A stretch of DNA of 64,000 nt from Myxococcales bacterium (GCA_049841135.1 JASGHK010000008.1:19272-83271), one strand, 5' to 3'. Shown: positions 3,765-60,420, counted from the first letter of the stretch. The notes: generated by a model not told the origin, from the sequence alone. Translations and numbers: made by a program.

Positions 3765-4308
3765 GTGCAGGTCTCCGACAGAGTCTGGCGCAGCGTCCTC
3801 TATGTCGCCGCCGCGGTGGCCCTCGGCTTCGGCATGGTGGAGGCCATCAACGAGGCCAAGCTCGGCACCGCGCTGTCGGCCGGGACGCCGCCGCCCGCGT
3901 TCAGCGCCCTGCGCGCCGACGACGGCAGGCCGTTCGCGCTCACCGAGCTCAAGGGCAAGGTCACCGTCCTCTCCTTCTGGGCCAGCTGGTGCGGCCCCTG
4001 CCGGCGCGAGCTGCCGGTGCTGCAGAAGCTCGAGGCGCAGTACCGCGACCAGGGCCTGGCGCTGGTGACGGTGAACGTCGACGAGCCGGGCTCGCGTGAG
4101 GACGCGGCGGCCTTCCTCAGGGAGCTCGGCCGGCCCCCGCCGCTGGTGGTCTTCCCGAGCGAGAACACGCAGGCCGACTGGCGCGCCGGCACCCTGCCGA
4201 CGCTCTACGTGCTCGGGCGCGACGGGCAGATCCTGCTCGGGCACAGCGGGGCGTTGCCGGAGGACGCGCTGCGCCGGGAGATTCGAGGCGGCGCTCAAGG
4301 CTCTCTGA
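3765..4308 (+). CDS. TlpA/ResA-like thiol:disulfide oxidoreductase (thioredoxin fold, WCGPC), membrane-anchored; apparent +1 frameshift near 4282
   Basis: GTG start with GGAGGA RBS. N-terminal TM segment, then SFWASWCGPCRRELP. The in-frame ORF runs on to 4523 across the convergent gene. Removing one T at about 4282 restores a natural end ...ALRREIEAALKAL* at TGA 4306-4308. Confidence 0.65.
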
Positions 4309-4795
4309 GCTTGGCGCGGATCAGCTCGAGCTCGCGCAGGGCCTCGCGGTCCTTCTCGCGGTTGAGCGCTCGCTTGGCGTCGATGAGGGCGTCGAGCGAG
4401 ATGACCCGCAACGTCCTGTCCCACATCGGAAACTCGACGCTGCGAGCCTTGACCGCCTCGAAGGCGCCGATGCCGGCGATCTCCTTCAGGACGTCCAGCT
4501 CTCCAAGATCGGTCTCCAGGTAGAGGTTCCGGTATTGCGCCAGGGTCTGCGCCGACTCGGGCAGCGCCAGCCTCTGGGGCCCGTTGAACCGCGGATTCAG
4601 GCCTCGCAGTGCGTTCACCAGCCGGGCCAGGTTCGACTCGTCGAACGCCGCGCAGACGTCGAGGTCTCGGGTCATCCGCGAGGCACCGTGGGCGACGCCG
4701 GCAAACCCGCCAATGAGGACGAAGTCGAACTTCGCGTCGACGAGTCTACGGACGAGTTGCGCCAGGTCGCGCATTGCGTGCCTCCAGTGCTTCAC
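4295..4795 (-). CDS. nucleotidyltransferase-fold protein (AbiEii/MNT-like toxin-antitoxin component)
   Basis: FDFVLIGGFAGVAHGASRMTRDLDV matches the GS...D.D signature of minimal nucleotidyltransferases. Its 5' end overlaps the small upstream ORF. Confidence 0.6.
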   Translation of the reverse strand: MKHWRHAMRDLAQLVRRLVDAKFDFVLIGGFAGVAHGASRMTRDLDVCAAFDESNLARLVNALRGLNPRFNGPQRLALPESAQTLAQYRNLYLETDLGELDVLKEIAGIGAFEAVKARSVEFPMWDRTLRVISLDALIDAKRALNREKDREALRELELIRAKLREP

Positions 4796-4955
4796 GCATC
4801 TCGAGGGCCAACTTCGCGGCGTCTTCGTGCGCCCTCACTCGCTCATCGGGCGTCATGCGCAGCGATGCCTCCAGCAGCCGCAGGTCATACCCGGCTTCCA
4901 CGTACTCGCGCTCCAGGCGCTCGCGTTCGCTCTCGGTCGCCATCTCGCGCTTCAT
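4746..4955 (-). CDS. small (69 aa) helical antitoxin-like protein
   Basis: MKREMATESERERLEREYVEAGYDLRLLEASL... Its ATG overlaps the TAA of the upstream HAD gene (TAATG) and its 3' end overlaps the NTase start. The call is inferred from position only. Confidence 0.4.
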   Translation of the reverse strand: MKREMATESERERLEREYVEAGYDLRLLEASLRMTPDERVRAHEDAAKLALEMREALEARNARPGATRP

Positions 4956-5600
4956 TATAGGAGCCGGGCGCGACGGCACGCCTCCGGCAGCTCGTCCACC
5001 CGCTCGGCGAACACCTTCGCTCCCGCCGCCCCGAGCGTCTCGCGCGTGCCCATTCCCCAGAGCACGCCCACGAAGGCGTAGCCGGCGTTCACCGCCGTCT
5101 GCGCGTCGACCACGCTGTCGCCCACGAAGACGACGCGCTCGACCTCGGGCAGCCTGGTGAGTGCAAGCCGGCACGCTTCCGGGTCCGGCTTGCGGCTGGG
5201 CACGTCCCCTCCGCCAACGACCACCGGGAAGAGCGACGAGAGGCTGAGCGCCTCGACGAGCTTGCGTGCCGCCGGTCCGGGCTTGTTGGTGACCACCGCT
5301 CGCGCCCCCGAGAGCTGCGCGAGCGCCTCGACGATGCCCGGGTACGGCCGGGTGGTGTCCAGGCAGTGGGCCGCGTAGTGCTCGCGCCAGATCTCCATCG
5401 CCTTCGGGAGGAGCCTCGACGTGCTCCGGCCCGAGCGTGCGCTCGAGGAGCCGCTGCGCGCCCTCGCCGACGTACCCGAAGATTTGCTGCTCCGGAAGCT
5501 TGGAGAGCCCCAGGGCCGAGCGGGCGTGGTTCGCGCTGCGGGCGATGTCCACGAAGCTGTCGATGAGCGTGCCGTCGAGGTCGAAGAGGTAAGCGTCCAT
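4955..5600 (-). CDS. HAD-superfamily phosphatase (phosphoglycolate phosphatase Gph/MupP-like); apparent +1 frameshift near 5405-5415
   Basis: The N-terminal half reads MDAYLFDLDGTLIDS... in one frame. The C-terminal half reads ...EIWREHYAAHCLDTTRPYPGIVEAL...VVTNKP...VFVGDSVVD in the +1 frame. Removing one C in the CCC run rejoins them. Confidence 0.7.
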
Positions 5601-5649
5601 GGCAGGCGGCCTTTCTACCAGATGCGCCGATGCTATCGTTCGCTCCGCC

Positions 5650-6864
5650 ATGGACAACCTGGACAACCGCCTGCGCCCCGGCGCTCTCTGCCTGCGCAAG
5701 AACGACCCCGCCACGAGCCTGCTGCTGGTCGAGCTGGACGGGCCCCACTCCCTCGTCGCCCGACTGGCGCCCGACTTGGAGCCCCTGCGAGTCGACGCCT
5801 CGGAGCTCGAGGTGGTGGGCGAGGACGCGGCCGCGCTGCGCGTCGTTCAGCTGCGCTGGCGCACGCAGAGGGCCGCGCTCAAGGCCCCGCCGGGCAAGCC
5901 GGTGCGCACCGCGATGGTCCTGTGCGCCGGCCTGGGGACACGCCTGCGGCCGCTCACCAACGTCTACCCCAAGCCCGCCCTGCCCTTCTTCTCCGGTCCG
6001 CTCGTCCGCTACTCCTTCGCGCTGCTCAAGGGCGCCGGGGTCGAGCGCGTGGTCATCAACACCCACCACCTGCCCCAGGTGATGGAGGCGACCGCCGCGC
6101 GCGAAGCCCAGCGGCTTGGGCTGGAGCTCGCCGTCTCCCACGAGCCGATCATTCAGGGCACCGGCGGCGGCGTGCGCGACGCGCGCAAGCTCCTGGGCGA
6201 CGAGCCCTTCATCCTCCTCAACGGCGACGCCTTCATGTCGCTGGATCTCCGGTCGCTCGTTGGCGCGCACCAGTCGCGTGGCGACGCGGTCACGATGGCG
6301 GTGGTCCCCATGCCGCCGACCGAGAAGTTCCCCGCGGTCGGGGCGACGCCCGAGGGCGAGGTCCAGCGCATCGGCGAGATCGGCGACCCGAAGCTCAAGC
6401 TCGCGCCCTGGCACTTCGTCGGCGTGCACGTCCTCGAGCCCTCGGTCTTCGACTTCATCCCAGCCAACGACGAGCAGGACATCCGCCCGGTCTACCTGGC
6501 GATGGCGAAGGCCGGGCTGAAGGTCCGCGTGTGCCCGGTGGCCCTCGGTGCCTGGGCGGACCTGGGCACCCCGTCGCGCTACCTCGCGGCGTGCGAGGAG
6601 GTGTTGACCGGCCTGTGCGAGCTCTCGGCGCTGGGCGCCTCCAAGCCGGTCGAGCCCAACGCGCCGCGCCGGTTCTGGGCCCACCCGCAGGCCCGGCTCG
6701 AAAGCGCGACGCTGGACCGCAGCGCCGTCTGCGAAGGCGCGCACGTGCGCAACGTCTCGCTGACCCGATCGGCCGTGCTGCCCGGGACCCGGCTCGAAGG
6801 ACCGGCGGCGCTGCACGACGTCATCGTCAGCGGCGAGCTGCGACTTGAAGGCGCCCGAGGGTAG
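5650..6864 (+). CDS. sugar-phosphate nucleotidyltransferase (MurU/GDP-mannose pyrophosphorylase-like)
   Basis: MVLCAGLGTRLRPLT...LLNGDAF signature. The start is uncertain. It is 5650 (MDNLDNRL) if the roughly 90 aa N-terminal extension is real, otherwise 5914 (MVLCAG). Confidence 0.65.
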   Translation: MDNLDNRLRPGALCLRKNDPATSLLLVELDGPHSLVARLAPDLEPLRVDASELEVVGEDAAALRVVQLRWRTQRAALKAPPGKPVRTAMVLCAGLGTRLRPLTNVYPKPALPFFSGPLVRYSFALLKGAGVERVVINTHHLPQVMEATAAREAQRLGLELAVSHEPIIQGTGGGVRDARKLLGDEPFILLNGDAFMSLDLRSLVGAHQSRGDAVTMAVVPMPPTEKFPAVGATPEGEVQRIGEIGDPKLKLAPWHFVGVHVLEPSVFDFIPANDEQDIRPVYLAMAKAGLKVRVCPVALGAWADLGTPSRYLAACEEVLTGLCELSALGASKPVEPNAPRRFWAHPQARLESATLDRSAVCEGAHVRNVSLTRSAVLPGTRLEGPAALHDVIVSGELRLEGARG

Positions 6865-7680: not shown

Positions 7681-7760
7681 TGTCCCCCCGCTGAGGCACC
7701 GCCCGTCGCGGTAGCATGGCCGCGCTGCAACCGAAGACGACGATCGACGGAGGAGCTTCG

Positions 7761-8621
7761 ATGCTCGAGGCGCGACTGCTGGCACTGCTGACCCTGCCCC
7801 TGGCCGCGGCCTGCGCGGGAGTCCAGGTTTCAGGCCCCTCGGCCGAGCAGGAGCGCGCCGCGCTCGTTCAGGAAGCCCAGGCGGGCCTCTCGACGCTCCA
7901 GGCGATCGCCTCGGCGCTTCCGCAAGAGCTCGCTCCGCTGCGCGACCGGGCGGACCGGGGCGAGGCGAGCGTCGCGCTCCAGCACACGCTGATGAGCCTC
8001 GTCGACCGCTGCGTGGGCCTCGCCTCCGAGGCCGAGGCAGTCCTGCTGCCGCTGCGGGAGCTTCACCCGCCGCCCGCAGAGCTCGATCGTCTGGAGGTGG
8101 AGACCGACCGGACCGCAAGCAGCGCCCGCACGGCCGCGGTCCAGGCGCTGGATTTCCTCGACGCCGTGTCCGTCCGCGCCTGCAGGCTCGCTACCTCCGC
8201 TCCGGCGCTTCGAGAGGACCTCACGGCGCCGGCGGACTCGGCTAGCCTTCAGGAACAGCTCGCGGGCGCGGCGCACGAAGCGGCCAGGTCACTTGTCCGC
8301 ACGCTCGCCGGCCGCGCGGTGGCTCGGCTGGTCGTCGTGCCCGCCGCGGTGAGCCTCGAGGGGCCATCGCGGGCGGATTCTGCCGCCATCCACGGTTGGC
8401 AGTTCTCGCGCCTGCTCGCCGCCGCGCTCCGCGACGCGGGGCTTCCGGCCACCTTCAGCGCCGAGCCCACCAGCGCCCAGCAGACCGCCGCGCTGGTCTC
8501 CGCCACGCTGGCGCTGCACAGCTCGGATTCGGTCTTCACCCTCTCGGTCCTCGGCCTCCGCGACCACACCCAGCTCGCCGCCACCAGCGGCGTCTACCCG
8601 CCCTCCAAGCCCACCTTCTAG
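7761..8621 (+). CDS. hypothetical lipoprotein (paralog of the next gene)
   Basis: Internal Met MLEARLLALLTLPLAAAC gives a lipobox. The C-terminal block R..VVVPAA..L.G...FSRLLAAALRDAG.PATFS is shared with the next gene. Confidence 0.5.
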   Translation: MLEARLLALLTLPLAAACAGVQVSGPSAEQERAALVQEAQAGLSTLQAIASALPQELAPLRDRADRGEASVALQHTLMSLVDRCVGLASEAEAVLLPLRELHPPPAELDRLEVETDRTASSARTAAVQALDFLDAVSVRACRLATSAPALREDLTAPADSASLQEQLAGAAHEAARSLVRTLAGRAVARLVVVPAAVSLEGPSRADSAAIHGWQFSRLLAAALRDAGLPATFSAEPTSAQQTAALVSATLALHSSDSVFTLSVLGLRDHTQLAATSGVYPPSKPTF

Positions 8622-8653: not shown

Positions 8654-9586
8654 ATGCGCTCCTTCACCCTCGCCCTCCTGTTGGCCCTCGCGGCCGCAAC
8701 CGCCTGCGCCGCCGCCAAGCCTGCGCCTCCGCAGAAGACCGACTTCGACTGGTTCGACGACGAGCTCCAGCTGGGAGACATCCAGCGCGGGCGGGTCGAG
8801 CGCCTCACGCTTCGCGCGCGCGCTGGCGAATCGGAGCTGGCGCTCGCGGAGGCCCTCTTGCGAGCCGGCCAGGACTGCCAGGCACGAGCCGAAGACGTCG
8901 TCAGCCGCGCCGAGGAGCTGCGCACGAACCATCCCCGCGATGCGCGAGCGCCCGAGGCCTTCCGGCGGGCAGAGGAGGCCGCGACCAAACTGCGCCAGTC
9001 GGCGAGCGAGGCCGCTGCTGCGGCCGACGCCGTCTACCTCGCGAACTCCGCCAAGGAAGCCGAGCAGGCCACGCGCGCGGAGGAGCCCGCTCCGTCGCCA
9101 CCGCCTCCTCCGGCTCCGGCCCCCGAACCTGCGCCGGCGTCCCCCGCGCCGACGGGAGACAGCGACTTGCTCAACGCCGCGGCGGAACAGGCCGGCAGCG
9201 CGCTGGCGGCCAAGCTCGCCCGGCACAAGGCCCGGTCGGTGGTGGTCACGCCCGCAGCCACCTTGATTGGCGACGAGATGCCCAAGCTGGCGCTCGCCTA
9301 CAAGAACAAGGGCGGGCAGGCGGACGTGTATGGACGCGCCTTCGCGCGCGGGCTCGCCGCGGCGCTGGCCAAGGCAGGCTTCAAGGCCACTTTCTCCAGC
9401 GACGTCCGCGGCCAGCTGGCGTCCGCGCCGGGCAAGCCGCAAGCGGACGTGTCGGAGGTGCGCATCCTCGTCTACGGCGCGCTGGCGACCCTGCCGAACG
9501 AGTTCGCGGCGTGGGAGTTGCGCGCGGTGGACCTCAACAACGACGGAATCCTTGGCGAGACCCAGGGCGTTCGCCGCGCGCGCTGA
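8654..9586 (+). CDS. hypothetical lipoprotein with Pro-rich linker (paralog of the previous gene)
   Basis: MRSFTLALLLALAAATAC lipobox at ATG 8654. Conserved C-terminal block ...VVVTPAATLIG...FARGLAAALAKAGFKATFS. Confidence 0.5.
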   Translation: MRSFTLALLLALAAATACAAAKPAPPQKTDFDWFDDELQLGDIQRGRVERLTLRARAGESELALAEALLRAGQDCQARAEDVVSRAEELRTNHPRDARAPEAFRRAEEAATKLRQSASEAAAAADAVYLANSAKEAEQATRAEEPAPSPPPPPAPAPEPAPASPAPTGDSDLLNAAAEQAGSALAAKLARHKARSVVVTPAATLIGDEMPKLALAYKNKGGQADVYGRAFARGLAAALAKAGFKATFSSDVRGQLASAPGKPQADVSEVRILVYGALATLPNEFAAWELRAVDLNNDGILGETQGVRRAR

Positions 9587-9720: not shown

Positions 9721-11304
9721 ATGCGTCTGAGCCTCGTGGGAGCCGACTTCGAGGAGAACCTCGGCCTGGGGATGATCGCCGCGACCGCGCAGCAGGCGGG
9801 CCACTCGGTCGTCGTCCACCCCTTCAACGACGTGCGGCAGGCCCGTGAGGTCGCCCGGCGCATCGCCTCGGCCCGGCCCGAGCTGGTCGGGCTGAGCCTG
9901 CAGTTCCAGCACCGCGGTCACGAGTTCGTGGCCCTGGCGCGGGCGCTGCGCGAGGCGGGCTACCGCGGGCACCTGACCTGCGGCGGCATGCTCGCCTCGG
10001 CGGCCTGGCAGCAGGTCCTGGCCGAGAAGGCGTTCGACTCGGTCGTCCTCTACGAAGGCGAGCAGACGATCGTCGAGCTGGCCGGTGCGCTGGTCGCGGG
10101 GCGGCCGCTGGCGGAGGTCCCGGGCCTGGCGCTGCGCGACGAGCGGGGCGAGGCCGTGCGCACCGCCGACCGGGAGCGGCCGAGCGACCTCGACGCGCTG
10201 CCCTTCCCCACCCGCTACCGGCCGCCGACCCGGCACCTGGGCATCCCCTTCCTGCCCGTCCTCGGCTCGCGGGGCTGCTGGGGGCGCTGCACCTTCTGCT
10301 CCATCAGCTCCTTCCACCTCGAGGCGAGCGCGCACGGCGGCGGGCAGCTCTTCCGCCGGCGCAGCCCGGAGAACATCGCGCAGGAGATGGCGCTGCTCGC
10401 GGGCGACGGCCCTGCCCTCTTCTGCTTCCACGACGACAACTTCCTCCTGCCGAACCCCAAGCACTCGCTGAAGCGCGTGCAGGAGATCCGCGCGGCTTTC
10501 GACGAGCTCGCCCCTGGCCCCCTGGGCATCATCGGCAAGACGCGCCCGGAGTGCCTGACGGCCGAGCTGGCGAAGGAGCTGCGCGAGCTGGGCGTGGTGC
10601 GGCTCTACGTCGGCGTCGAGAACACCTCCGAGACCGGCGCCGAGCACCTGGCGCGCGGCACCCAGACCCGGCACGTGCACTCGGCGCTGGCCGCCTGCCG
10701 CGAGGCGGGCATCTTCGCCTGTTACAACCTGCTCGTCTTCGAGCCCAAGACGACGCTCGCCGACGTGAAACAGAACGTCGCCTTCATGCGCGAGCCTGCC
10801 GCGCCGAGGCCTACACCGGTACCCCGCTGCACCGCTCGCGTGCCTCGCGCGACGCGCTCACCGGCAGCTGGCTGGGCTGGAACTACCGGCTCGAGGACGA
10901 CCGGGCCGAGCTGCTCTTCCGCATCTGCGCGGCCGCCTTCCGCGAGCGCAACTTCGGCGCCGACGGCGTCGCCAACCGGTCGATGGGCCTGGGCTACTGC
11001 GGCCGGATCCTCGAGCACTTCTACCCGGAGGCGTCCGCCGAGGCGGCGAAGCTCTCGCGCCGCGCCGCGGACCTGACCCGGAACATCGTCCTGGAGACCG
11101 CGAGCTTCCTGGAGGAGGCCATCGCGCTCGCTGAGACGACGCCGCTCGCCGAGCGCGACGCCATCGAGCGGCAGACGGCGCTGCTGGGGCTGCGCATCGC
11201 ACAGGCGGACCAGCCCTGGCACGCGGCGATGGACGAGTTCCACGCCGACGCCGACGCGCTCGTCGCCTCACTGCAGGCGAGCCGGCCGAAGCCCGCGTCG
11301 TGGA
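9721..11304 (+). CDS. B12-binding radical SAM protein; apparent -1 frameshift near 10792-10800; stop not found before the next gene
   Basis: N-terminal cobalamin-binding domain (LVGLSLQF...). CxxxCxxC motif LGSRGCWGRCTFCSI. The reading frame changes after ...NVAFMRE and continues HARACRAEAYTGTPL... in frame 0. That frame runs without a stop into the lipoprotein-like ORF at 11305. Confidence 0.65.
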
Positions 11305-11972
11305 TGCGGGTGGCGCGGCGGGTGGCGCTGGGCGCGACCTTGGTGCTCGGCGGCACGTCCTCCTGCGAGTGCTACAGCGTCGACATGGTCCCCTACGATC
11401 CCGACGCGATGGTGGTCGACCCGGTGCCCGGCGACGCTGGGGCGACCGACGCGATGGTCGCCGACCCGCTCCCGCCCGACGCCGGCACCTCCGACGCGAT
11501 GGTTGCCGATCCGCTCCCGCCCGACGCCGGCGCCTCCGATGCGCTGGTCGCCGACCCGCTCCCGCCCGACGCTGGCAGCCCAGATGCGGGCATGGTGGCC
11601 GATCCGGCCCCGGAGGACGCAGGAATGGCGGTCGATCCACTCCCCGAGGACGGCGGCCACGCCGCCCGGGAACCGGCCGGCCAGTGGCGCGACTCCGCCA
11701 CCTACGCCTTGCGCTCGAACGACCTTCCGCTCTTCTGCCCGCCTGCGGTGCGGCTGTGCGCCGTGCGCGACGGCGAGACGGTCCGCGTCACCGTCCAGGG
11801 AGCGCCCGGCCCGCTCAGCACGCGCTGCGAGACCTCGGGCATCGTCGTCGGCGAGGGCCGGGAGCTGACCTGGACTCCGGCGTCGGCGGACGACTCGCTG
11901 CGCGTCGCCGTTCGTTCCGCGGGCGGCGTGGCGGTGGTCTCGCTGCGGGCCTGCGAGGTCAAAGCGAGCTGA
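11305..11972 (+). CDS. lipoprotein-like protein with 5 tandem 13-aa repeats (DAMVADPLPPDAG); possibly fused to the radical SAM gene
   Basis: MRVARRVALGATLVLGGTSSC signal/lipobox. Five 39-bp DNA repeats at 11392-11640. C-terminal Cys-containing domain. It is in-frame with the upstream gene and has no intervening stop. Confidence 0.4.
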
Positions 11973-38214: not shown

Positions 38215-38289
38215 CGCCCGGCGCGGGCGTCGCGCCCGCGACCCGCCCTTGCCCCTCGCTTGGCACCCTCGGCGCTCCAGCAGCGATGG

Positions 38290-38355: not shown

Positions 38356-38472
38356 CCGCCGCTTGCCCTGCCCTTTCGATCTTCGCTGCCCATGACGAAG
38401 CGGCCCCCCGCTCCACGGAGGGAGCGGGGGGCCGCGAAGGTCAGGCGGGCCTCGGTGGACCCGCGAGCGGGC

Positions 38473-46300: not shown

Positions 46301-46309
46301 GGAGGGGAC

Positions 46310-46921: not shown

Positions 46922-46992
46922 AGCGCAGGGCGCAAGGAGGGTGGCCAGGCCCGCGACGCAGGCGAGCCTGGCAGCGCTCGGGCGCGGCACGC

Positions 46993-48882: not shown

Positions 48883-49078
48883 TTGGGGGGTGCTCACTCT
48901 CGAACAATCCAGGCTGCGCGGCACCATAAGAGAGGGCCTTGGGGAATTCAACAAAGTGCTTCCGTCCCGCCCCGGGCGCGACTATCGTTCGCCCCTTCGT
49001 TTTGCCGGCCTCGTGCCGGCCTTGGATCGCCGGCCGCGTGCCGGCAGCGCTGCTCCCAGCACCGACGAGGTCGTTCGC

Positions 49079-50635: not shown

Positions 50636-50643
50636 GAGATACC

Positions 50644-51840
50644 GTGAGCAATCGTCTGGGCATCTGCATTGTCGGTCTGAATGGCGCCGTGGCCACCACG
50701 GTCGTTGCCGGCCAGCTTCTGATGAAGAAGAAGCTCACCGAGCGCAACGGCATGATCACCGAGACCAAGGACTTCGAGAAGCTGGGCCTGGCCCCGGTCG
50801 ACGACATCGTCTTCGGCGGCTGGGACCTGCTCCCCGGCTCCACCTACGAGTGGGCGCAGCACCACCACGTGCTCAAGCCCCACGTCGTGGACCAGGTCAA
50901 GGCCGAGCTCCAGGAGGTCAAGGCCTGGCCGGGCGTCGTGTCCGAGAAGTTCATGAACGCGATGGCCAAGGACAAGATCAAGAACGTGGTCAGCGCGCCC
51001 ACGTTCCGCAAGGAGCTGGAGATCCTCCAGGGCCACATCGAGGGCTTCAAGAAGCAGCACCAGCTCGACAACGTGGTCATCGTCAACCTGACCTCCACCG
51101 AGAAGTACACCGAGGTCAGCGACGTCCACCGCACCATCGAGGCCTTCGAGAAGGGCCTGGACGCCAACGACGAGCGGATCAGCCCGGCGATGAAGTTCCT
51201 CTACCTGGCCTGCAAGATGGGCATCCCGCACGCCAACTTCACGCCCAGCCTCTCCAAGATCCCCGCGCTCGAGAAGCTGTCCGACCAGACCATCCCCATC
51301 TGCGGCGAGGACGGCAAGACCGGCCAGACGCTGCTCAAGACCGTGCTCGCGCCGATGTTCGTCGTCCGCCAGCTCAAGGTGCGCGGCTGGTTCTCGACCA
51401 ACATCCTGGGCAACAACGACGGCCTGGTCCTCAACGACCCCGCCGCCAACAAGACCAAGGTCACCAGCAAGATGAGCGTGCTCGACAGCGTGCTCGGCTA
51501 CAAGGTGCCCTTCCACCAGGTGCACATCCACTACTACGAGCCCCGCGGCGACGACAAGGAAGCCTGGGACAACATCGACATCGAGGGCTGGGCCGGCGAG
51601 AACATGCAGCTGAAGATGAACTTCCTCTGCAAGGACTCCATCCTGGCCGCGCCGCTGGTCATCGACATGGCCCGCATCCTCGCCTTCGCCAAGGCCAAGG
51701 GCGAGAAGGGCATCCAGCGCCAGATGTCCGTCTTCTTCAAGTCGCCCTACCACACCGAGGGCGAGACCCCGGTCCACGACCTGTTCCGCCAGTACACGCT
51801 GCTCGAGAACTGGTCGGCCAAGCACGGCGGCAAGGCGTAG
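50644..51840 (+). CDS. ino1: myo-inositol-1-phosphate synthase (inositol-3-phosphate synthase)
   Basis: LGICIVGLNGAVATTVVAG NAD fold. HANFTPSLSKIPALEKL...GEDGKTGQTLLKTVLAPMF...GWFSTNILGNNDG...KSP closely parallels archaeal and bacterial MIPS. Confidence 0.85.
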   Translation: MSNRLGICIVGLNGAVATTVVAGQLLMKKKLTERNGMITETKDFEKLGLAPVDDIVFGGWDLLPGSTYEWAQHHHVLKPHVVDQVKAELQEVKAWPGVVSEKFMNAMAKDKIKNVVSAPTFRKELEILQGHIEGFKKQHQLDNVVIVNLTSTEKYTEVSDVHRTIEAFEKGLDANDERISPAMKFLYLACKMGIPHANFTPSLSKIPALEKLSDQTIPICGEDGKTGQTLLKTVLAPMFVVRQLKVRGWFSTNILGNNDGLVLNDPAANKTKVTSKMSVLDSVLGYKVPFHQVHIHYYEPRGDDKEAWDNIDIEGWAGENMQLKMNFLCKDSILAAPLVIDMARILAFAKAKGEKGIQRQMSVFFKSPYHTEGETPVHDLFRQYTLLENWSAKHGGKA

Positions 51841-52009
51841 CCGGGCTTCGGGCTTCGGGCCTCGGGCTTCGGACTATTCCTTCCCGCCTGAGGCCCCCAG
51901 CCTAGACACGCGGGATCGGCAAGGCCCGCAACAGCAACCAACACGCACCTGAGAGAGCGCGGTCCACATAGGGACCGCGCTCTTTCCCTTCACACCAGGA
52001 GAGTCGGTC

Positions 52010-53323
52010 ATGACGGAGCTCGCGATCTTTGGGGGCAAGCCTGCAGTGCGCGCAGAGGACCACGTGCGCTGGCCGGTCCTCGGTCAGGAGGATCGCGAGG
52101 CGGTCCTGCGCGTCCTCGACCGCGGCGTGCTCTCCGGCCCGTTCGCACCCGAGGTCCGCGCGCTCGAGTCCGAGTGGGCCAAGTACCTGGGCAGCAAGTG
52201 GTGCCTGGCCACCAACAGCGGCACCGCCGCCATCCACATGGCCATGGCCGCCGCCGGCATCGGCCCGGGCGACGAGGTGATCGTCCCGGCGTTCACCTTC
52301 GTGGCCACCGCCCTCGCCGTGCTCCACCAGGGCGCGGTGCCGGTCTTCGTCGACGTCGAAGAGAAGACCTTCGGCATGGACCCCGCGCAGGTCGAGAAGG
52401 CCATCACCCGGAGGACCAAGGCGGTGATGCCGGTGCACCTGCACGGCACGCCCTGCGACATCGACGCCATCGCCGCGCTCTGCAAGAAGCACAACCTGCT
52501 GCTCATCGAGGACGCGGCGCAGGCGCACGGCAGCACGCACGCCGGCAAGAAGGTGGGCACCATCGGCGCCATCGGCTGCTTCAGCGTGCAGTCGTCCAAG
52601 AGCCTCGCCGCGGGCGAAGGCGGCCTGTTGGTCACCGACAGCGAGGCTCTGTGGGAGCAGGCCAACCGCACCCGCATGTTCGGCGAGAACGTGAAGGCGG
52701 GCGACGAGTCCGGCTACAACCTCCAGCGCGCCCTCGACGGCAACCGCGCCTACGACTCGCTGGGCATGGGCTGGATGTACCGGACCACCGAGCTGTCCGC
52801 CGCCGTCTGCCGCGCGCAGCTCGGCAAGCTCGACAAGTTCAACGCCCAGGCGCAGGCCAACGCCGCGCTCCTGAACAAGCACCTGAAGGAGCTGCCCGGC
52901 GTCACCCCGCCCGAGCCGCGAGCCGGCGACACCAGCTGCTACCACAAGTACCGCGTGGTCCTGGACCCGAAGAAGGCGGGCGTCGACGCGCCGCCCAAGA
53001 AGGTCCGCGACGCGCTCAAGGCGGCGCTCGTCGCCGAGGGCTTGGAGGCGGTGCTCTGGCAGACCCAGCCCGTGCCGGGCCAGGGCCTGTTCAAGAACAA
53101 GGCGGGCTTCGGTGGCCGGGCGTTCCCGTTCGACCAGTCGCCGCAGGTCAACTACGACCTGGGCCAGTTCCCGACGACCACGCGGCTGCTCGACTCGTCG
53201 ATCGTGCTCTTCTCGCACACCTGCCCCATCGCGCCGCAGCCGACGAAGCTGGTCGAGGCCTACGCCGAGACCTTCACCCGCGTCTGGAAGCGCCTGGGCG
53301 ACGTGGTGGCCAAGGCGAAGTAG
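52010..53323 (+). CDS. DegT/DnrJ/EryC1/StrS-family PLP-dependent aminotransferase
   Basis: GPFAPEVRALESEWAKYLGSKWCLATNSGTAAIHMA...FSVQSSKSLAAGEGG with the family PLP-Lys context. Confidence 0.85.
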   Translation: MTELAIFGGKPAVRAEDHVRWPVLGQEDREAVLRVLDRGVLSGPFAPEVRALESEWAKYLGSKWCLATNSGTAAIHMAMAAAGIGPGDEVIVPAFTFVATALAVLHQGAVPVFVDVEEKTFGMDPAQVEKAITRRTKAVMPVHLHGTPCDIDAIAALCKKHNLLLIEDAAQAHGSTHAGKKVGTIGAIGCFSVQSSKSLAAGEGGLLVTDSEALWEQANRTRMFGENVKAGDESGYNLQRALDGNRAYDSLGMGWMYRTTELSAAVCRAQLGKLDKFNAQAQANAALLNKHLKELPGVTPPEPRAGDTSCYHKYRVVLDPKKAGVDAPPKKVRDALKAALVAEGLEAVLWQTQPVPGQGLFKNKAGFGGRAFPFDQSPQVNYDLGQFPTTTRLLDSSIVLFSHTCPIAPQPTKLVEAYAETFTRVWKRLGDVVAKAK

Positions 53324-53339
53324 CGGCCCTCCCCCTACT

Positions 53340-53460
53340 CCTCCCCCCTCCCCGACCTTCAACCTGCGGGAGGGGCGTTCGTCCCGCGGCTTCGGCTGTC
53401 TTGGTCGGAGCTGCTCGGACTCCTCGGATCGCCGGCCTTGTGCCGGAAAGCACTCTGAGC
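53340..53460. repeat. dispersed intergenic repeat copy (caacctgcgggaggggcgttcgtcccgcggcttcggc...ggtcggagctgctc)
   Basis: About 85% identical over about 75 bp to 57765-57840. Confidence 0.65.
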
Positions 53461-53589
53461 GACCACCGACGGGCTGTCTGTCCTGCCCTATCCAGTGGAT
53501 GGAGGAGGACCCTGTGGTTGCGGGCGTCCCGCCCGCGCGCCCGCGCACGGGGCCGCCTCGGCTCTCGCAACGCCTCGGGAGATGCACTC

Positions 53590-54385
53590 ATGACCCCCCG
53601 TCCCGCCAACTTGCTCGACAGCGCCATCGCCGCTGCCCGCGCTGCCGGCGCCATCCAGCTCGAGCGCCGCAAGGCCGGCTTCAAGGTCGAGGACAAGGGC
53701 GCGGCGGACATCGTCACCGAGGTCGATGGCGAGTGCGAGCGGGCCATCACCGAGCTCGTCGCCGCACGCCTTCCCGGGCACGCGGTGCTGGGCGAAGAAG
53801 GAACCGGAGAGGTCGACACTCAGGCCGAGTTCCTGTGGATCGTCGAATCCGCTCGACGGGACCAAGAACTACGCCCACGGGTACGCGCGCTCGGCCGTGT
53901 CCATCGCGGTCGCTCACCACGGCAAGGTCGTGGTCGGCGTCATCCTCAACCCGGCGACCGACGAGCTCTTCGCCGCCGAAGAGGGCAAGGGCGCGACGCT
54001 CAACGGCCAGGCCATCCACGTCTCGGCGACCGAGCGCATCTCGCGGGCCATGGTCGCCAGCGCGCTCGCCTACGACCCAACCCCCGGCGTGCGCCGCGCC
54101 GACCGCGCCCAGCTCGAGCGCTTGGCGCGAGTGCTCGCCGCCGCCGAGGCCGTCCGCTCCGACGGCTGCTGCGCCCTCGACCTGTGCGACGTGGCCCGCG
54201 GCCGTTTCGACGCGTACTTCGAGCACGGCCTGAAGAGCTGGGACACCGCCGCGGGCACGCTGATCGTCCGCGAAGCGGGAGGCACCGTCACCACCTATGC
54301 CGGCGGCCCGCACGATCCGAACTCGCCCGACATGGTGGCGTCCAACGGGCGCTTCCACGCGGAGCTGGTCAAGCTGATGGAGTGA
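53590..54385 (+). CDS. inositol monophosphatase family protein; apparent +1 frameshift near 53846
   Basis: EEG...EFLWIV then a shift to DPLDGTKNYAHG (the IMPase DPIDGT motif) and WDTAAG later. Removing one A in gaa restores the frame. Confidence 0.8.
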
Positions 54386-54480
54386 GGCCCGCTGGGGAGG
54401 GCCCGGGATGGCTGTCTCCGCGGCCGGTGTTGGAGCCGTGACGCGGGAGGCGGGCTGAGACCGCCTTCCTCGGCTCTCTC

Positions 54481-57027
54481 ATGACCTTGCCCCCTGGCTC
54501 CCCCTCGGCGAAGCACAGACTCTTGCGCGTCCCCGGCAGCCTCTACCGCCGCTATGTGGCCGCCGTCTGCCGCAAGCCCCGGCTCGCCGCCCTGCTGCTC
54601 GCGCTCTTCAGCCTGCCCGCCCTGGCGCTGACCGCCGCCTACTTCGCCGACGTCCGCGCCGGGCTCCAGGAGCTGCTGCCCTCCTCCGCCCCCAGCGTGA
54701 CGGCCCTGAAGGAGCTGCACGCTCGCCTGGGCGGGCAAGCGCACCTGAACGTGCTCGTGCAGTCGGACGACCCGGCGGCCAATCGACGCTTCGTCGACGA
54801 GCTCGCCGGCCGGCTGCGCGAGCGCAATCTCCCCGAAGCCAGGTCCATCCAGTCCACGGTGATGCCCGAGCGGCTCTGGGCCGAGAAGCGTGCCCCGCTC
54901 CTCTTGCCGCGCGCCGAGTTCGACCGGGCGATGGACGAGGTCGACCGGGCCATCGAAGAAGCCACCGTCCAGGCGAGCCCGTTCGCGCTGGGCCTCGAGG
55001 ACGAAGCGCCGTCGGAACAGGCCGGCTCGCAGCTCCAGGAGCGGCTCCAGGCGCGCATCGCCGAGCAGGACCGGTTCCCCACCGGCACCCTGCAGACCCG
55101 CGACGGCAAGACCGCGGTCGTCGTCATCAAGCTTCAAGGCTCGGAGGTGGACATCGAGCCCTCTTCGCGGCTGCTCGCCTCGGTGCAGCGCGAGGTCGAC
55201 GCGCTGCGGCCCGGCTTCCCGCCGGAGCTGACCGTCGCCTACAACGGCGAGGTCGCCAACCTGGTCGAGGAGCACTCCGCGATCCTCTCGGACATGTCGC
55301 TGTCGACCTTGCTCGTCTTCGCGCTGGTCACCGCGCTCATCGCCGCCTACTTCCGGTCCTGGCGCGCGATCCTCGCGGTGGGCATCGGCTTGCTGCCGGG
55401 CCTGTTCGCGACCTTCGCACTGGGCCGTCTGCTCGCCGGCAGCCTCAACTCCAACACCGCCTTCCTGGGCTCGATCATCGCGGGCAACGGCATCAACTAC
55501 CCGCTCATCCTGCTCGCCTACTTCCGGGCCACCGAGTCGCACCTGCCCCTGCCCGAGGCCATCGTCCGCGCCGCGCGCCGCGCGCTGCCGGGGACCCTGG
55601 GCGCGGCCGCCACCGCTTCGGCCGCCTATGCCGGCCTCGCCTCCTCCTCGTTCAAGGGCTTCTCGCAGTTCGGCTGGCTCGGTGGCGCCGGGATGATCTG
55701 CACCTGGGCCGTCACCTTCCTGGCCATGCCCGTGGCCATCGCGCTGCTCGATCCGCCTCGCCAGGTCGAGAGGATCACCCGCCCCCAGCGGTGGCTCGAG
55801 CGCTACTTCTCCCATCCCCGAACCCCTCGCCTCGTAGCGGCCGCGGCGCTCGTCCTGGTCCTCGGCGGATTGCTCTTCGGAGTCGTGCGCGCGGCGCGGA
55901 CGGGCCTCTACGAGTGGGACCTGCGCCACCTGCGCAACTCGGACTCGCTCGAGTCCGGCAGCGCCTCGTGGGACCCGAAGATGAACGAGATCTTCGGCGT
56001 CTGGCTCAACCCCATCGTGGCGATGGCGCCCACGGCCGACGCACGCGAAGAGGTCGCGGAGGGTCTGCGACGCGCGCTCGTGACCGGTGCCGAGCCACTG
56101 GCGGAGCGGGTTCAGACCATCCAGGACTTCGTGCCCCCGCTCGCCGACCAGCAGCAGCGCCTGCAGCGCATCGCCCGGCTGGGCGCACAGGCCCAGAAGC
56201 TGCGCGAGGTCGCGCCCGAGAAGCTCTCGGCCGACGCCTGGCGCCGGCTCGACCTGTGGACGGCCCCTGCGCAGCTCGCGCCCATCACCGTCTCCGAGGT
56301 CCCGAGCACGCTCCTCAACGGCCTCGCGGAGGTCTCCGGCCGTACCGACGCCGCGGTGCTGCTCTTCCCGTCGCTCAAGGTGGACTTCGACGACGGACGC
56401 AACGTCCTGCGGTTCGCCGATCAGCTGGCGACGGCGAAGCTCCCGCCGGGCACCGTGGTGGGCGGCGGCTTCCTCTTCATGGCGGAGATCATCCGGCGGG
56501 TGCACGACGAGGCCCCGGTGGTGGTCCTGACCGTGGCGGCGCTGGTGGCGCTGCTGCTCGTGCCGCTCTTCGGGCGCAAGCCGTCGCGCGTGCTGGTGAC
56601 GGTGGTGACGGTGGGCGCCGTGGCGCTCGCCTCGCAAGCGCTGATGGTGGCCCTGGGCGTGCGGGTGAACATGCTAAACTTCGCCGCGGTGCCCATCACC
56701 ATCGGCGTCGGCGCGGACTATGTGGTGAACCTGTTCGGCGCCATGGACGCGCTCGGCTCCGACGCGCGCCGGGCGTGCTCCCGCATGGGCGGCGCCATCC
56801 TGCTCTGCTCGCTGACCACCATCGTCGGCTACCTCTCTCTGGTGATGGCGCAGTCCGGCGCGCTGCGAAGCTTCGGCTGGGCCGCCGTGGTCGGAGAGGT
56901 CCTGGCGGTGGGCACGGTCCTGGGCGTCTTGCCGGTCGTGCTCCCACGCCGGAAGACGGCTGCGGCTCCCGAGACCCTCGCAGCACCGCCGCCGCCCACC
57001 GAGGCCGCTGAGGAGGCTGCAGCCTAA
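54481..57027 (+). CDS. MMPL/RND-superfamily exporter (HpnN-like lipid transporter)
   Basis: 848 aa. Two hydrophobic 6-TM bundles, each after a large soluble loop. Typical RND/MMPL topology. Confidence 0.75.
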   Translation: MTLPPGSPSAKHRLLRVPGSLYRRYVAAVCRKPRLAALLLALFSLPALALTAAYFADVRAGLQELLPSSAPSVTALKELHARLGGQAHLNVLVQSDDPAANRRFVDELAGRLRERNLPEARSIQSTVMPERLWAEKRAPLLLPRAEFDRAMDEVDRAIEEATVQASPFALGLEDEAPSEQAGSQLQERLQARIAEQDRFPTGTLQTRDGKTAVVVIKLQGSEVDIEPSSRLLASVQREVDALRPGFPPELTVAYNGEVANLVEEHSAILSDMSLSTLLVFALVTALIAAYFRSWRAILAVGIGLLPGLFATFALGRLLAGSLNSNTAFLGSIIAGNGINYPLILLAYFRATESHLPLPEAIVRAARRALPGTLGAAATASAAYAGLASSSFKGFSQFGWLGGAGMICTWAVTFLAMPVAIALLDPPRQVERITRPQRWLERYFSHPRTPRLVAAAALVLVLGGLLFGVVRAARTGLYEWDLRHLRNSDSLESGSASWDPKMNEIFGVWLNPIVAMAPTADAREEVAEGLRRALVTGAEPLAERVQTIQDFVPPLADQQQRLQRIARLGAQAQKLREVAPEKLSADAWRRLDLWTAPAQLAPITVSEVPSTLLNGLAEVSGRTDAAVLLFPSLKVDFDDGRNVLRFADQLATAKLPPGTVVGGGFLFMAEIIRRVHDEAPVVVLTVAALVALLLVPLFGRKPSRVLVTVVTVGAVALASQALMVALGVRVNMLNFAAVPITIGVGADYVVNLFGAMDALGSDARRACSRMGGAILLCSLTTIVGYLSLVMAQSGALRSFGWAAVVGEVLAVGTVLGVLPVVLPRRKTAAAPETLAAPPPPTEAAEEAAA

Positions 57028-57074
57028 GCGCCGGGAAGGACGCTCCTTTTCAACACGGGCTGCGAACGGGTGGC

Positions 57075-57094
57075 GCCCGCCCTTGAAGGCGGGC
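57075..57094 (+). terminator. GC-rich hairpin (gcccgcc-cttgaa-ggcgggc) 48 nt after the MMPL stop; possible terminator without a U-tract
   Basis: Perfect 7-bp stem seen directly. No T-run follows. Confidence 0.25.
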
Positions 57095-57209
57095 AGGCTT
57101 GAGGGCGTCAAAGCGCCAGCTTGATTGCCCTGCGTCACCCGAGCGTGGTAGGTCCGAGCCCGTGAACAAGCTCAGCACCCGAGACGGTCGCTTCGCTGCC
57201 CTGCGTCGG

Positions 57210-57738
57210 ATGGCGCTGGCGGGGATCGCCCTGGTGCTCTGTGGCGCGGAGGCCGCGATGGAGCCGAAGTTCGGCCCGAACGACATCGAGACGCTCTTCT
57301 TCATCAACAAGAGCGACGACAAGAACCGCGTGGACTACGGCCTTCGGCTGGACGCCAACTGCCAGCCGGTGGGCAGCGACCCGGTCTTCCCGTACTGGCG
57401 CGAGTTCGAGAACGCCCCGCCGGTGAAGACGCACACGCTCAAGTTCTTCGAGTACGCGGGCTACGGCGTGGTCGGCGTGAAGGTCACCAAGAACGAAGGC
57501 GGCGCCGACATCTCGCTCAAGCTCAAGCCGCTCTCCCGGGAGCTCGTCATCTCCACCGGCAAGGGCCCGGACGGCAAGTGCATGGCCGTGGTGCGCAGCA
57601 CCATCGCCGACGTGCAGGGGGCCGAGCTCAAGAGCGCGTACATCAAGCTCAAGTACGGCTGGACGGTCGACTACGTCGACGTGTTCGGCAAGCACCCCAT
57701 CACCGGGGCGGAGCTCGACCGAGCGGCTCAAGCAGTAG
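57210..57738 (+). CDS. secreted hypothetical protein; 3' end uncertain
   Basis: Signal peptide MALAGIALVLCGAEA. The in-frame ORF continues to 57932 through a dispersed repeat. A +1 error in gggg at 57706-57709 would end the protein ...HPITGRSSTERLKQ* at TAG 57736-57738. Confidence 0.45.
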
Positions 57739-57744
57739 GCAGCC

Positions 57745-57900
57745 CTGCCCTCGCAGCCCTCCCTCCCAACTGCGGGAGGGGTTCGTCCCGTGGCTTCGGC
57801 GATCCTGGTCGGAGCTGCTCCAACTCCCTTGGCTTCCTGCGACGCACAATTTCGGTGCGAGCAGGAGCGCTAGCGCTCCAAGGCCTCGGCGTCGCATCCC
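57745..57900. repeat. dispersed intergenic repeat copy (tcccaactgcgggaggggttcgtcccgtggcttcggc...)
   Basis: Matches 53340-53460. The core is the reverse complement of ccctcccgcagttggga. Confidence 0.65.
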
Positions 57901-58024
57901 TTCAGACCCGCACCGGTGTCGGCGAACGCTGACATACCTTGCGCGGGGTCATGTCAGCGTACCCATACCGTCTGCCCCGGGACGCCCATGCCGAGACTGG
58001 CTTCATGAGTAGTCGCCGGCCGAT

Positions 58025-58120
58025 CGCGGCGGCAGAAGAGCTCCGACCTGGGTGGCCGAAGGCAACCTACGGACCCCCTCCCGCAGTTGGGAAGGGGCAG
58101 GGGGACGGCCCGCAAACGCG
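58025..58120. repeat. dispersed intergenic repeat copy (ggcggcagaagagctccgacctgggtggccgaag...ccccctcccgcagttgggaaggggcaggggg)
   Basis: Matches 38290-38355 and 19141-19228. Confidence 0.65.
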
Positions 58121-58181
58121 AAGCCGGCGAGATCTCTCGATCGCGCCGGCCTCGTGAACTGACCTCAGCGACCCGCTCGAA

Positions 58182-59516
58182 CTAGGCGTTCGCCTCGCTC
58201 TTGCGGCTGCCCTTGGAGGGCCGCTCGGGCTTCTCGGCCTTCTCCGGAGCCTTCTCGCCGTTACCCTTGGCCTCGCCGGCCGGCTTGGCGGCCTGGCCGC
58301 CGCAGCGCGGAGCCGCGTTCAGGAAGCAGCCGTAGCGCAGGCGCTCGTCCAGGCGGCAGGACCAGACCAGCTCGCCGTTGTGCACGGTCATGTCCGGGCA
58401 GCCGTCGCACATGTTGGCTTCGCCGTCCGCCATGAAGTCGATGGGCTGGATGATGGCGATGGACTGGAAGTACTGCTTCTTGAGCGCCTTCATCGGGTTG
58501 CTGACCAGGCTCTTGGCCCAGCCCATGGCCGCCTTGCGCAGGCTGGGGTCGACCAGCGCGCCGCCGGCCAGGAGCGACCGGCCCATCTTCAGCGCCGCCG
58601 GGTCGGAGTAGGCGACGTACTTGTTGAAGAGCAGGTGGTGGCTGGACTGCATCAGCTCCATGAACTTGGGGCCGACGTAGCCGGAGATGCTCTCCTTGTC
58701 GCCCACGCGGCCGGTCACCAGCCACTTGAAGCTCTGCGGGTCCTTGGTGCCGCCCAGGTACGCGCAGGGCTCGAAGGCCGGGTCCTCTTCGCGGATCTTG
58801 GCGACGAGGTCGTTCGCGGTGAGCGGCTGGGGGAGCTTGCTCTCGTCGTAGTACACGAGCTCCTTCGGGTCCACCGGCTTGCCCTGCGCGTAGTAGTCGA
58901 AGTCGGTGGTGCGGCTGGTGCGGAAGAGGATGAGCACCATGGAGTGGACGATGTCCATGTGCTCCTTGGCCCACTTCAGCATCCCGGGGATCTGGTCCAG
59001 GGTGTGCGGGTAGACGGTGGAGTTGAACGCCACCGACATGCCGCCCACGTCCGCGACCATCTGCGCGTACTTCAGGCGCAGCTCGCACAGCTCGATCTCG
59101 CTCTTGCCGGTCCAGCCGCCCGGGCGGTGCTGGCCGGAGTCGATGTGGAAGGTGAAGCCGAAGACGCCGGCCTTCTTCAGGTCGCGCACCAGCTCGGGGG
59201 TCAGCGCCAACGCGTTGGAGTTGACGATCGGCTTGAGGCCGTACTCCTGCTTGATGATGCGGACGATCTCGACGATGTCCGGGTGGATCAGCGGGTCGCC
59301 GCCGGTGATGGACACGGAGTCGAAGCGGCGGTTCTTGCGGAACACCTCGAGATCCGCGCGGATCTGGTCGAGCGTCTTGTCGGAGTTCTTCTCGTTCCGG
59401 CTGTAGCAGCCCTCGCAGTACAGGTTGCAGCGCTTGGTCGGCTCGAGCCACACCAGCACGTTGTCGTTGAGGGACCAGGGAAGTCGGTAATAGCGGCTGG
59501 GGTCAAGCGTAGCCAT
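58182..59516 (-). CDS. radical SAM protein, HpnH-like (CNLYCEGC cluster plus C-terminal Cys-rich DUF3463-like region)
   Basis: GGAG RBS. LVWLEPTKRCNLYCEGCY CxxxCxxC motif. GGDPLIH. C-terminal MCDGCPDMTVHNGELVWSCRLDERLRYGC. It is the 3' part of an antisense-spanning 1,882-aa artefact ORF. Confidence 0.7.
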   Translation of the reverse strand: MATLDPSRYYRLPWSLNDNVLVWLEPTKRCNLYCEGCYSRNEKNSDKTLDQIRADLEVFRKNRRFDSVSITGGDPLIHPDIVEIVRIIKQEYGLKPIVNSNALALTPELVRDLKKAGVFGFTFHIDSGQHRPGGWTGKSEIELCELRLKYAQMVADVGGMSVAFNSTVYPHTLDQIPGMLKWAKEHMDIVHSMVLILFRTSRTTDFDYYAQGKPVDPKELVYYDESKLPQPLTANDLVAKIREEDPAFEPCAYLGGTKDPQSFKWLVTGRVGDKESISGYVGPKFMELMQSSHHLLFNKYVAYSDPAALKMGRSLLAGGALVDPSLRKAAMGWAKSLVSNPMKALKKQYFQSIAIIQPIDFMADGEANMCDGCPDMTVHNGELVWSCRLDERLRYGCFLNAAPRCGGQAAKPAGEAKGNGEKAPEKAEKPERPSKGSRKSEANA

Positions 59517-59675
59517 TGCGTGTTCTCTCCATCCAGGGTTAAGCGAGCCCGGCACCATAGCCGAAAACCAGACGTTCGGCACCTCCCCCGGTGGGCCCCC
59601 AGGTTCAAAGGGCTTCCCCGGGCGCGCGTCAACGGCTAGAAAGTGCCTTTTCGTCCGAGAGTCCGAGAGGTTGCG

Positions 59676-60420
59676 ATGTCTTCCATCGTCGCGGTTCGCA
59701 GCGTCGTCAAGGAGTACCGGCTGGGCAAGGTGGTGGTCCCGGCCCTGCGCGAGGTCAGCCTGGAGGTCCCGGCCGGCGAGTTCCTGTCCATCGCCGGCCC
59801 CTCGGGCAGCGGCAAGACCACGCTGCTCAACCTCATCGGCTGCGTCGACACGCCCACCGCCGGCACCGTGGAGGTCGCCGGCAAGAACACCTCCAGCCTC
59901 TCCGAGCGCGAGCTGACCGATCTGCGCCTTCACCACCTGGGCTTCATCTTCCAGAGCTTCAACCTGGTGAACGTGCTGACGGTCTTCCAGAACGTCGAGT
60001 TCCCGCTGCTGCTCCAGGGCAAGACCACCGCCGCCGAGCGCAGCGCCCGGGTCCACGAGCTGCTCGAGGCGGTGGGCCTGAAGGACTACGTCCGGCACCG
60101 GCCCAACGAGCTTCTCCGGCGGCCAGCGGCAGCGTGTGGCGGTGGCCCGCGCCCTGGTCACCCGCCCGCAGATCGTCCTCGCCGACGAGCCGACGGCGAA
60201 CCTCGACTCGCAGACCGGAAGCAACATCATCGACCTGATGCGCGAGATGAACCGCAAGCAGGGCACCACCTTCATCTTCTCCACCCACGACGCCAAGGTC
60301 ATGGCCCACGCCAGCGCCGTGGTGAAGCTCGCCGACGGCCGGATCGTCGAAAGGGCCTCAGGGGTGGGCAGCGGCGTGGCGGTGGCCCCGGTGGCCGCCG
60401 TCTCGGCGGGAGCACACTGA
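59676..60420 (+). CDS. ABC transporter ATP-binding protein (MacB/LolD-type); apparent +1 frameshift near 60120
   Basis: Walker A GPSGSGKTT and Q-loop. After ...RPNEL the frame shifts to give SGGQRQRVAVARAL...LADEPTANLD...STHD. Removing one T restores ELSGGQRQRV. Confidence 0.8.

Follow-up and report, generated by a model that had tools for sequence, protein, structure and literature searches.

Most frame-breaking lesions in a 64-kb stretch of a Myxococcales metagenome-assembled genome are probably residual consensus errors linked to short palindromic motifs

We describe ten lesions that break the reading frame of nine genes in a 64,000-nucleotide stretch of DNA (GCA_049841135.1 JASGHK010000008.1:19272-83271), hereafter the window. 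It belongs to a metagenome-assembled genome (MAG) named "Myxococcales bacterium" (locus_tag QM765_, contig of 1,652,613 bp), which, judging from its long contig, is almost certainly a long-read assembly. The lesions comprise eight +1 insertions and two deletions of 22 and 43 nucleotides (nt), and the nine genes represent about 21% of the ~43 genes in the window. We consider it likely that these lesions belong mostly to the deposited consensus and not to the organism, being motif-linked residual consensus errors in a long-read MAG. An earlier note on this DNA, made from the sequence alone, had named the same nine genes and counted eight +1 insertions among nine breaks, and both statements agree with our results: frame switches in a codon-usage model, split Pfam domains and the DNA of relatives place the breaks at or near the positions it gave. 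Its description of all of them as single-nucleotide indels holds for the eight insertions and fails for the 22-nt and 43-nt lesions. The homopolymer-prone read chemistry that it proposed finds no support in the window, and motif-linked consensus error is the better supported of the two explanations.

With 71% G+C, the window contains long open frames by chance in all six frames, and therefore genes were located by a frame plot of G+C at third codon positions (GC3) combined with a codon-usage hidden Markov model (HMM) trained on the window's own long open reading frames (ORFs). Exact protein look-ups found several of the uncorrected ORFs verbatim among NCBI proteins. The nearest genome in the species-representative collection (L001/L023, GCA_036504155.1) is a different species with ~80-90% nucleotide identity, and a somewhat closer fragment, L026, was obtained from a Logan assembly. 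The comparison loci used throughout (L001, L023, L024, L026, L005, L007, L022 and L025) come from other species or strains and have 65-93% identity; the SNF2 helicase and the giant surface protein had no orthologous locus for comparison, and a metagenome scan anchored on a nucleotidyltransferase gene (5599-6861) returned only distant relatives of 23-28% identity, useless for junction checks. The HMM placed gap-free same-strand frame switches at 5412, 10792, 22593, 36034, 41339, 53843 and 60109, and an abrupt end of coding at 57717. In the DNA of relatives, the window has one extra base at each of 4282, 5413, 53848 and 57717, and single Pfam domains divided between two frames are reunited by a one-base deletion. 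Switches at 4794, 4958 and 60400 were rejected as further frameshifts, since they mark normal borders between genes: the two former come from the passage from an antitoxin-like ORF to a nucleotidyltransferase, and the latter from the ATPase stop and FtsX start, which overlap as TGATG (60418-60422).

In the gene of a TlpA-family thiol-disulfide reductase (true extent 3765-4308, plus strand; Pfam Redoxin/AhpC-TSA), DNA alignment to L023 reveals an extra T within GATC at 4282-4283 (GAGATTCGAGG). L023 reads GGGAGA-TCGAGGCGGCGC at this site, with 12 bases identical on either side, and seven orthologues of 180-181 amino acids (aa) end in ...LRREIEAAL[KR][AS]L, as does the corrected window reading. 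The HAD-IA hydrolase gene (4955-5600, minus strand) contains an extra coding-strand G within GAGCTC at 5414-5415 (GAG(G)CTC, the added base in parentheses here and below), which is the sole uncompensated indel in the alignment to L023. Its HAD_2 profile is matched at 2-57 and 61-178 in two frames and at 2-178 once corrected, the L023 and L024 genes are intact with 214 aa, which is the corrected length of the window gene, and the corrected reading is ...PEHVELLPKAME. For the inositol monophosphatase-family (IMPase) gene (53590-54385, plus strand; 264 aa corrected), the Inositol_P matches at 5-89 and 91-264 in two frames become a single match at 5-264 (239 bits), and intact orthologues of 264-265 aa exist in L001 and L026 and also as P0280/P0281. 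At 53846-53848 the window reads GTCGAATCCG where L001 and L026 both read GTCGACCCG, so the lesion can be read as the addition of an A to GAT-C or as a C replaced by AT, and the catalytic WIVDPLDGT motif is regained only by removing an A.

The secreted-protein gene containing DUF4833 (57162-57738, plus strand, with the start at 57162 GTG or 57210 ATG) carries an extra G at 57717, directly 3' of GAGCTC (GAGCTC(G)ACC), which does not copy a neighbouring base. The L026 orthologue (192 aa, with PF16117) ends in TGADLTERLKQ* and the L007 orthologue in ...DERL*, the other differences in the L026 alignment are synonymous, and the uncorrected window ORF extends to 57932. This gene is indeed frame-broken, as the earlier note suspected, at this G and not at the gggg run at 57706 where the note had put the break. 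A duplicated C at 57720, suggested by the distant L007, was rejected in favour of the G indicated by the closer L026. Regarding the ATPase gene of an ABC transporter (59676-60420, plus strand; 247 aa corrected), an extra T lies within GAGCTC (GAGCT(T)C) at 60112-60113, 7 nt from where it had been placed. The ABC_tran matches at 1-102 and 104-137 in two frames join into 1-137 after correction; the L005 orthologue holds the Q-loop/signature region in a single frame, ...HRPDQLSGGQRQRVAIARAL, and the corrected window reads ...HRPNELSGGQRQRVAVARAL. Left uncorrected, the ORF at 59676-62525 is a spurious ABC-FtsX fusion of 949 aa (ABC_tran 1-102 plus FtsX).

Three other insertions were placed by homologous proteins or by the genes themselves. 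The caspase-family (Peptidase_C14) gene with a C-terminal domain (21660-23222, minus strand) bears two lesions, of which the earlier note had recognized the insertion and overlooked a deletion. The insertion turns coding-strand GG into GGG at 22594-22596 (CAG(G)GAG); homologues read ...AEQAQEMGSLGGSIFTH... where the window changes frame between AEQAQ and EMGSLGG. In the SWIM-SNF2 helicase gene (34188-37233, plus strand; 1014 aa corrected), an extra C lies at the 5' edge of CTGCAG at 36036-36037 (CTG(C)CTGCAG), as placed by the HMM switch (36034/36035) and by the corrected reading ...KLDELERLLEEILLQGGHKVVVFSEWEKM. SNF2-rel_dom 1-283 is in the upstream frame and Helicase_C 13-110 in the downstream frame from 36040; the match of the latter opens at profile position 13, where the frames meet, and the two domains are contiguous after correction. 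The gene of a giant Cys-rich repetitive surface protein (38473-45436, minus strand; 2320 aa corrected), delimited by its ORFs and HMM segments and containing internal 213/426-nt repeats, has an extra coding-strand T at 41332-41333 (GGAT(T)CTGG), with GATC present once corrected; the corrected module ...GSCNTSSGPDLVYAVDLPAGGYKDL...RPNVYIRKAC aligns to five paralogous modules of the same protein. At each of the eight insertions, deletion of one base yields complete Pfam domains and orthologue lengths and termini, in agreement with the earlier claim that one-base corrections restore conserved motifs.

The two deletions are of another kind. The B12-binding radical SAM gene (9721-11972, plus strand; ~757 aa expected, intact homologues 738-775 aa) had been taken as a -1 case at 10795, which proved to be a clean 22-nt deletion with its junction at 10795-10796. 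Homologues read FMRE-QATHPVNF-CRAEAYTGTPL, the codons for QATHPVNF are lost in the window, and the alignment to L022 DNA has one 22-nt gap with flanks ~89% identical. Past the deletion the frame remains open for ~390 codons, 82% identical to P0059. As a separate observation, a 45-nt repeat in 3.9 copies (11401-11576) encodes a (D/S)AMVADPLPPDAG motif in the C-terminal extension of this protein, and the homologues P0059 and P0060 have the same (D/S)AMVADPLPPDAG repeats in varying copy number. In the caspase gene, 8 nt of the window stand in place of 51 nt in homologues, that is, a 43-nt deletion with its junction at 22134-22135 (within a few nt) that loses about TSHSYQSVAQKGTL. The deleted segment, including a nearly invariant Lys, is retained in 14 of 14 homologues, and the L025 DNA alignment shows a 43-nt gap. 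This junction was resolved by direct reading together with the DNA alignment; tblastn with intact homologues put everything in one frame, because the wrong frame stays open in DNA of 71% G+C. The three-piece reconstruction matches the 495-aa homologues P0001 (65%) and P0002 (59%) over 93% of its own length, and Peptidase_C14 coverage grows from 1-137 to 1-212 on correction. Joined frames thus restore the alignments of both the caspase and the radical SAM protein to their homologues. No motif or repeat was seen at the ends of the 22-nt and 43-nt deletions, which could be low-coverage drop-outs of the assembly or consensus, or genuine strain variants.

We then considered what the insertion sites have in common. 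A classical homopolymer error, in which the read chemistry miscounts runs of identical bases, may seem attractive in view of the doublet or triplet of the inserted base at seven of the eight uncorrected sites. However, these doublets were created by the insertion itself: without the added base the run is a single nucleotide at seven sites and a pair at the eighth, no break occurs in any of the 362 coding runs of at least 4 nt (60 of them of at least 5 nt and 3 of at least 6 nt) while lone bases are struck, the G at 57717 copies no neighbour, and there are no single-base deletions, all of which makes miscounting of runs quite improbable. The sites instead fall in or beside palindromes. GAGCTC is touched at 5414/5, 60112/3 and 57717 (immediately 3' of the motif), GATC at 4282/3 (confirmed by L023), 41332/3 and less securely at 53846/7, and CTGCAG, at its edge, at 36036/7. 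The IMPase site was downgraded as a GATC site because L001 and L026 both read GAC-CCG. The motif test used an insertion-point model, which allows for the positional ambiguity of duplicated bases, and a minimum-p family-wise correction over 80 palindromic 4- and 6-mers; it replaced a first test by maximum counts, in which very common GC-rich palindromes dominate. GAGCTC is touched at three of eight sites vs 0.73% expected per site (binomial tail 2e-5, family-wise p ~1e-4), and GATC at three of eight vs 2.05% expected (tail 4.5e-4). Intact copies dominate (218 of GATC and 56 of GAGCTC), so that only a few per cent of the motif copies are affected (3/221 and 3/59, respectively).

Could the lesions be real mutations fixed in the lineage, as in genuine ongoing gene decay? 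Genomes in true decay, such as that of Mycobacterium leprae, accumulate nonsense mutations, large deletions and insertion-sequence (IS) insertions under relaxed selection. It is true that the lesions exist in the deposited sequence, that two of them are multi-nucleotide deletions, and that exact look-up of six corrected proteins found no intact copy from the same strain. On the other hand, 21% of the genes are struck by indels only and no nonsense codons were found; conserved enzymes and transporter subunits are affected, and relatives (L001, L023, L024, L026, L005, L007, L022 and L025) are intact at every comparable site, which was the outcome of the orthologue comparison that the earlier note had proposed. 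Over ~24 kb aligned to the sister species L001/L023, uncompensated coding indels occur only at 4282, 5413 and 53848, all of them extra bases of the window, the remaining non-triplet gaps being intergenic or local alignment noise that sums to zero. After the breaks, the true frames are open to natural stops (for ~950 codons in the giant protein) with normal codon bias. For the IMPase and HAD genes, respectively, the ratio of nonsynonymous to synonymous substitution rates (dN/dS) was 0.31 and 0.21 before the lesion and 0.22 and 0.32 after it; an intact control gene gave 0.22-0.24, and the ratio is thus not raised downstream. Moreover, the one-base events are insertions in eight of eight cases and cluster at GAGCTC and GATC, and a large GC-rich genome with locus-tag numbers above 46,000 would hardly have the profile of a decaying one. 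Gene decay is therefore improbable as the cause of all or most lesions. Taken together, the intact relatives, the lack of downstream decay, the ~21% hit rate with indels only, the long-contig MAG and the motif clustering argue that the insertions are artefactual. The earlier claim of errors rather than pseudogenes is in this sense well supported, if indirectly, for the eight insertions, and the two deletions could be real variants.

A mixed origin, with the eight insertions as artefacts and the 22-nt deletion, the 43-nt deletion or both as real strain alleles and hence genuine recent pseudogenes, deserves more credit, although we still think it the less probable outcome. Each is a clean, non-repetitive loss of several codons from a stretch that every homologue conserves, unlike basecalling noise, and neither showed an association with a motif. 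Nevertheless, the radical SAM and caspase genes are otherwise perfectly preserved, the caspase gene also bears an artefact-type +1, and a low-coverage long-read consensus can lose short stretches. The +1 and the -43 of the caspase gene together restore the outer frame, a coincidence with a chance of one in three that would not rescue function, since the 157 codons between them stay out of frame. A more speculative idea, which we hold to be very doubtful, is that the +1 insertions are in-vivo mutations at GAGCTC/GATC, for example scars of self-restriction breaks sealed by error-prone end joining, with the 22- and 43-nt deletions as deletion outcomes of the same repair; if true, genes of the host would be turning into pseudogenes through the activity of a restriction-modification system. 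Finally, programmed recoding, by which +1 ribosomal frameshifting or transcriptional slippage would permit read-through, has nothing in its favour beyond the existence of +1 sites and seems practically negligible. Orthologue sequences, which do not have the extra base, contradict it, and the eight contexts, in eight unrelated genes, share no slippery heptamer, in-frame stop or hungry codon; only palindromes are shared among the sites.

In the explanation that we favour, that of motif-linked consensus errors, the GAGCTC and GATC sites would be methylated by restriction-modification methyltransferases of the organism, and the modified bases may perturb basecalling or consensus at ~1-5% of the motif copies. 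The resulting residual errors, ~1.6 per 10 kb, would strike lone bases and usually copy a neighbour, in or next to GAGCTC (three of eight), GATC (two or three of eight) and, once, at the edge of CTGCAG. One spurious base would thereby be added at eight coding places, and each would break the frame, leading gene callers to predict proteins that are cut short, run on too long, come in pieces or are falsely fused. Neither the 22-nt nor the 43-nt deletion fits this mechanism. We infer the sequencing platform, the methylation and the existence of reads that contradict the consensus; among the genes of the window, none was identified as that of a methyltransferase. In line with the few per cent of motif copies affected here, GATC motifs have been reported to contain residual errors in nanopore assemblies although most methylated sites are called correctly (PMC12392509); methylation-linked nanopore errors are described mainly as substitutions in the papers found (10.64898/2026.01.14.699587).

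Several points weigh against this explanation. The sequencing platform of the MAG is itself a deduction, and the two deletions remove conserved residues in a way that is atypical of basecalling errors. The motif test rests on eight sites and the motifs were noticed post hoc, though the test corrects for this, and the assignment of the IMPase site to GATC requires an additional synonymous difference. Insertions of +1 are unusual compared to the methylation-linked errors, mainly substitutions, of the papers found (10.64898/2026.01.14.699587). Additionally, given the exact look-up of six corrected proteins mentioned above, the intact alleles are deduced rather than observed. We nevertheless conclude that the organism itself almost certainly has intact copies of these genes.

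The consequences are found in the public record. What we describe is an unremarkable artefact in a deposited assembly, which matters little as biology and more as a warning on data quality. At least six aberrant products of this 64-kb stretch stand in NCBI protein records as ordinary proteins. MGC4121967.1 is the TlpA product with its ORF running to 4523, of 252 aa instead of ~180 and with 71 junk residues appended; MGC4121969.1 is a HAD fragment of 147 aa; MGC4121974.1 (= P0061) is the uncorrected radical SAM ORF (9721-11076, 451 aa) with an out-of-frame junk tail; MGC4121985.1 is the middle piece of the caspase (158 aa), annotated as 'hypothetical protein QM765_46875'; MGC4121994.1 is the SNF2 product of 757 aa, also with an out-of-frame junk tail; and MGC4122003.1 is an IMPase fragment of 219 aa. 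The exact protein of the false 949-aa ABC-FtsX product was absent from the searched collection. In this sense, the earlier warning that automated callers would over-call pseudogenes applies only partly, as the deposited record presents several of the broken products either as fragments or as normal proteins whose ends are wrong. Were the rate of ten lesions per 64 kb to apply to the whole genome, whose locus-tag numbers exceed 46,000, the genes affected would number roughly a thousand or more, and pseudogene counts, pangenomes, domain-architecture surveys and protein clustering would be distorted. The clustering at GAGCTC/GATC offers specific, verifiable targets at which this assembly and others like it could be polished.

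The neighbourhood of the affected genes has features of its own. Between the TlpA and HAD genes, the minus strand encodes an antitoxin-like ORF (4955 to 4746) and an AbiEii/DUF6036-type nucleotidyltransferase (4774 to 4295); L023 has only ~300 nt between these genes, aligning to window 4655-4950, which seems to be a remnant of that pair. A perfect 9-nt tandem duplication (TGGACAACC x2) at 5651-5668, at the likely start of a nucleotidyltransferase gene, adds three codons vs L023 (MDNLDNR vs MDNR). Where L023 has one gene of 329 aa, the window has a neighbouring pair of paralogous lipoprotein-like genes (7716-8621 and ~8750-9586); the radical SAM gene (9721-11972) and a small gene at 12.2 kb are missing from the L023 locus. 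The intergenic DNA upstream of the gene at 27.4 kb, beside a divergent sigma/anti-sigma pair, contains 2.7 tandem copies of a 44-nt unit with 94% identity (27179-27296).

The aldehyde-dehydrogenase gene at 30.5-32.1 kb and the GMC-oxidoreductase-like gene at 47.0-48.9 kb are adjacent in L001 and in seven other relatives, so the ~15 kb at 32130-47000 would be a lineage-specific insertion. Its cargo comprises the SWIM-SNF2 helicase, a repeat-propeller-like protein, the 2320-aa Cys-rich surface protein and a four-helix-bundle protein, and a tRNA scan found none at its ends. Close to the right end of this insertion and immediately upstream of the four-helix-bundle gene, three adjacent 9-nt tandem arrays occupy 46033-46270: CGTGGCGTG x8.9, CGCGGCAGT x3.4 and GTGGACGGT x5.7. 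Further on, a conserved gene cluster (49059-63839) is common to L001, L026 and L007. It encodes a GH3-like enzyme, a myo-inositol-1-phosphate synthase, a DegT-type aminotransferase, the IMPase and an MMPL/RND-type membrane protein, along with DUF4833, a radical SAM enzyme (58182-59469, minus strand), the ABC ATPase and two FtsX permeases. In its make-up the cluster resembles a pathway for an envelope component derived from inositol. L026 differs in that DUF4833 comes directly after the IMPase gene, with no MMPL gene between.

Comparison with known systems helps to place these lesions. With genomes like that of Mycobacterium leprae the window shares a high fraction of disrupted genes, and differs in that the mixed lesions and relaxed selection of those genomes are not seen here. 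The homopolymer errors of 454, Ion Torrent and early nanopore data are likewise frame-breaking single-base indels, but they grow with run length and occur in both directions, whereas here lone bases are struck by insertions only. A closer likeness is found in the nanopore errors concentrated at short, probably methylated motifs of which most copies are read correctly (PMC12392509); in comparison with the methylation-motif errors so far described, ours are +1 insertions and not substitutions, and both methylation and platform are presumed. Many frameshift 'pseudogenes' in public genomes are in fact artefacts of assembly, influenced by platform, assembler and coverage (Cooley & Wright 2024, PMC11017572). 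The window differs from those cases in being part of a MAG without a ground-truth genome, and in having a one-base class made of insertions only, at two palindromic motifs, plus the 22- and 43-nt deletions. It resembles them in that frame breaks split or truncate otherwise intact genes, and in that a raised count of such breaks marks the quality of the assembly rather than the biology of the organism (PMC11017572).

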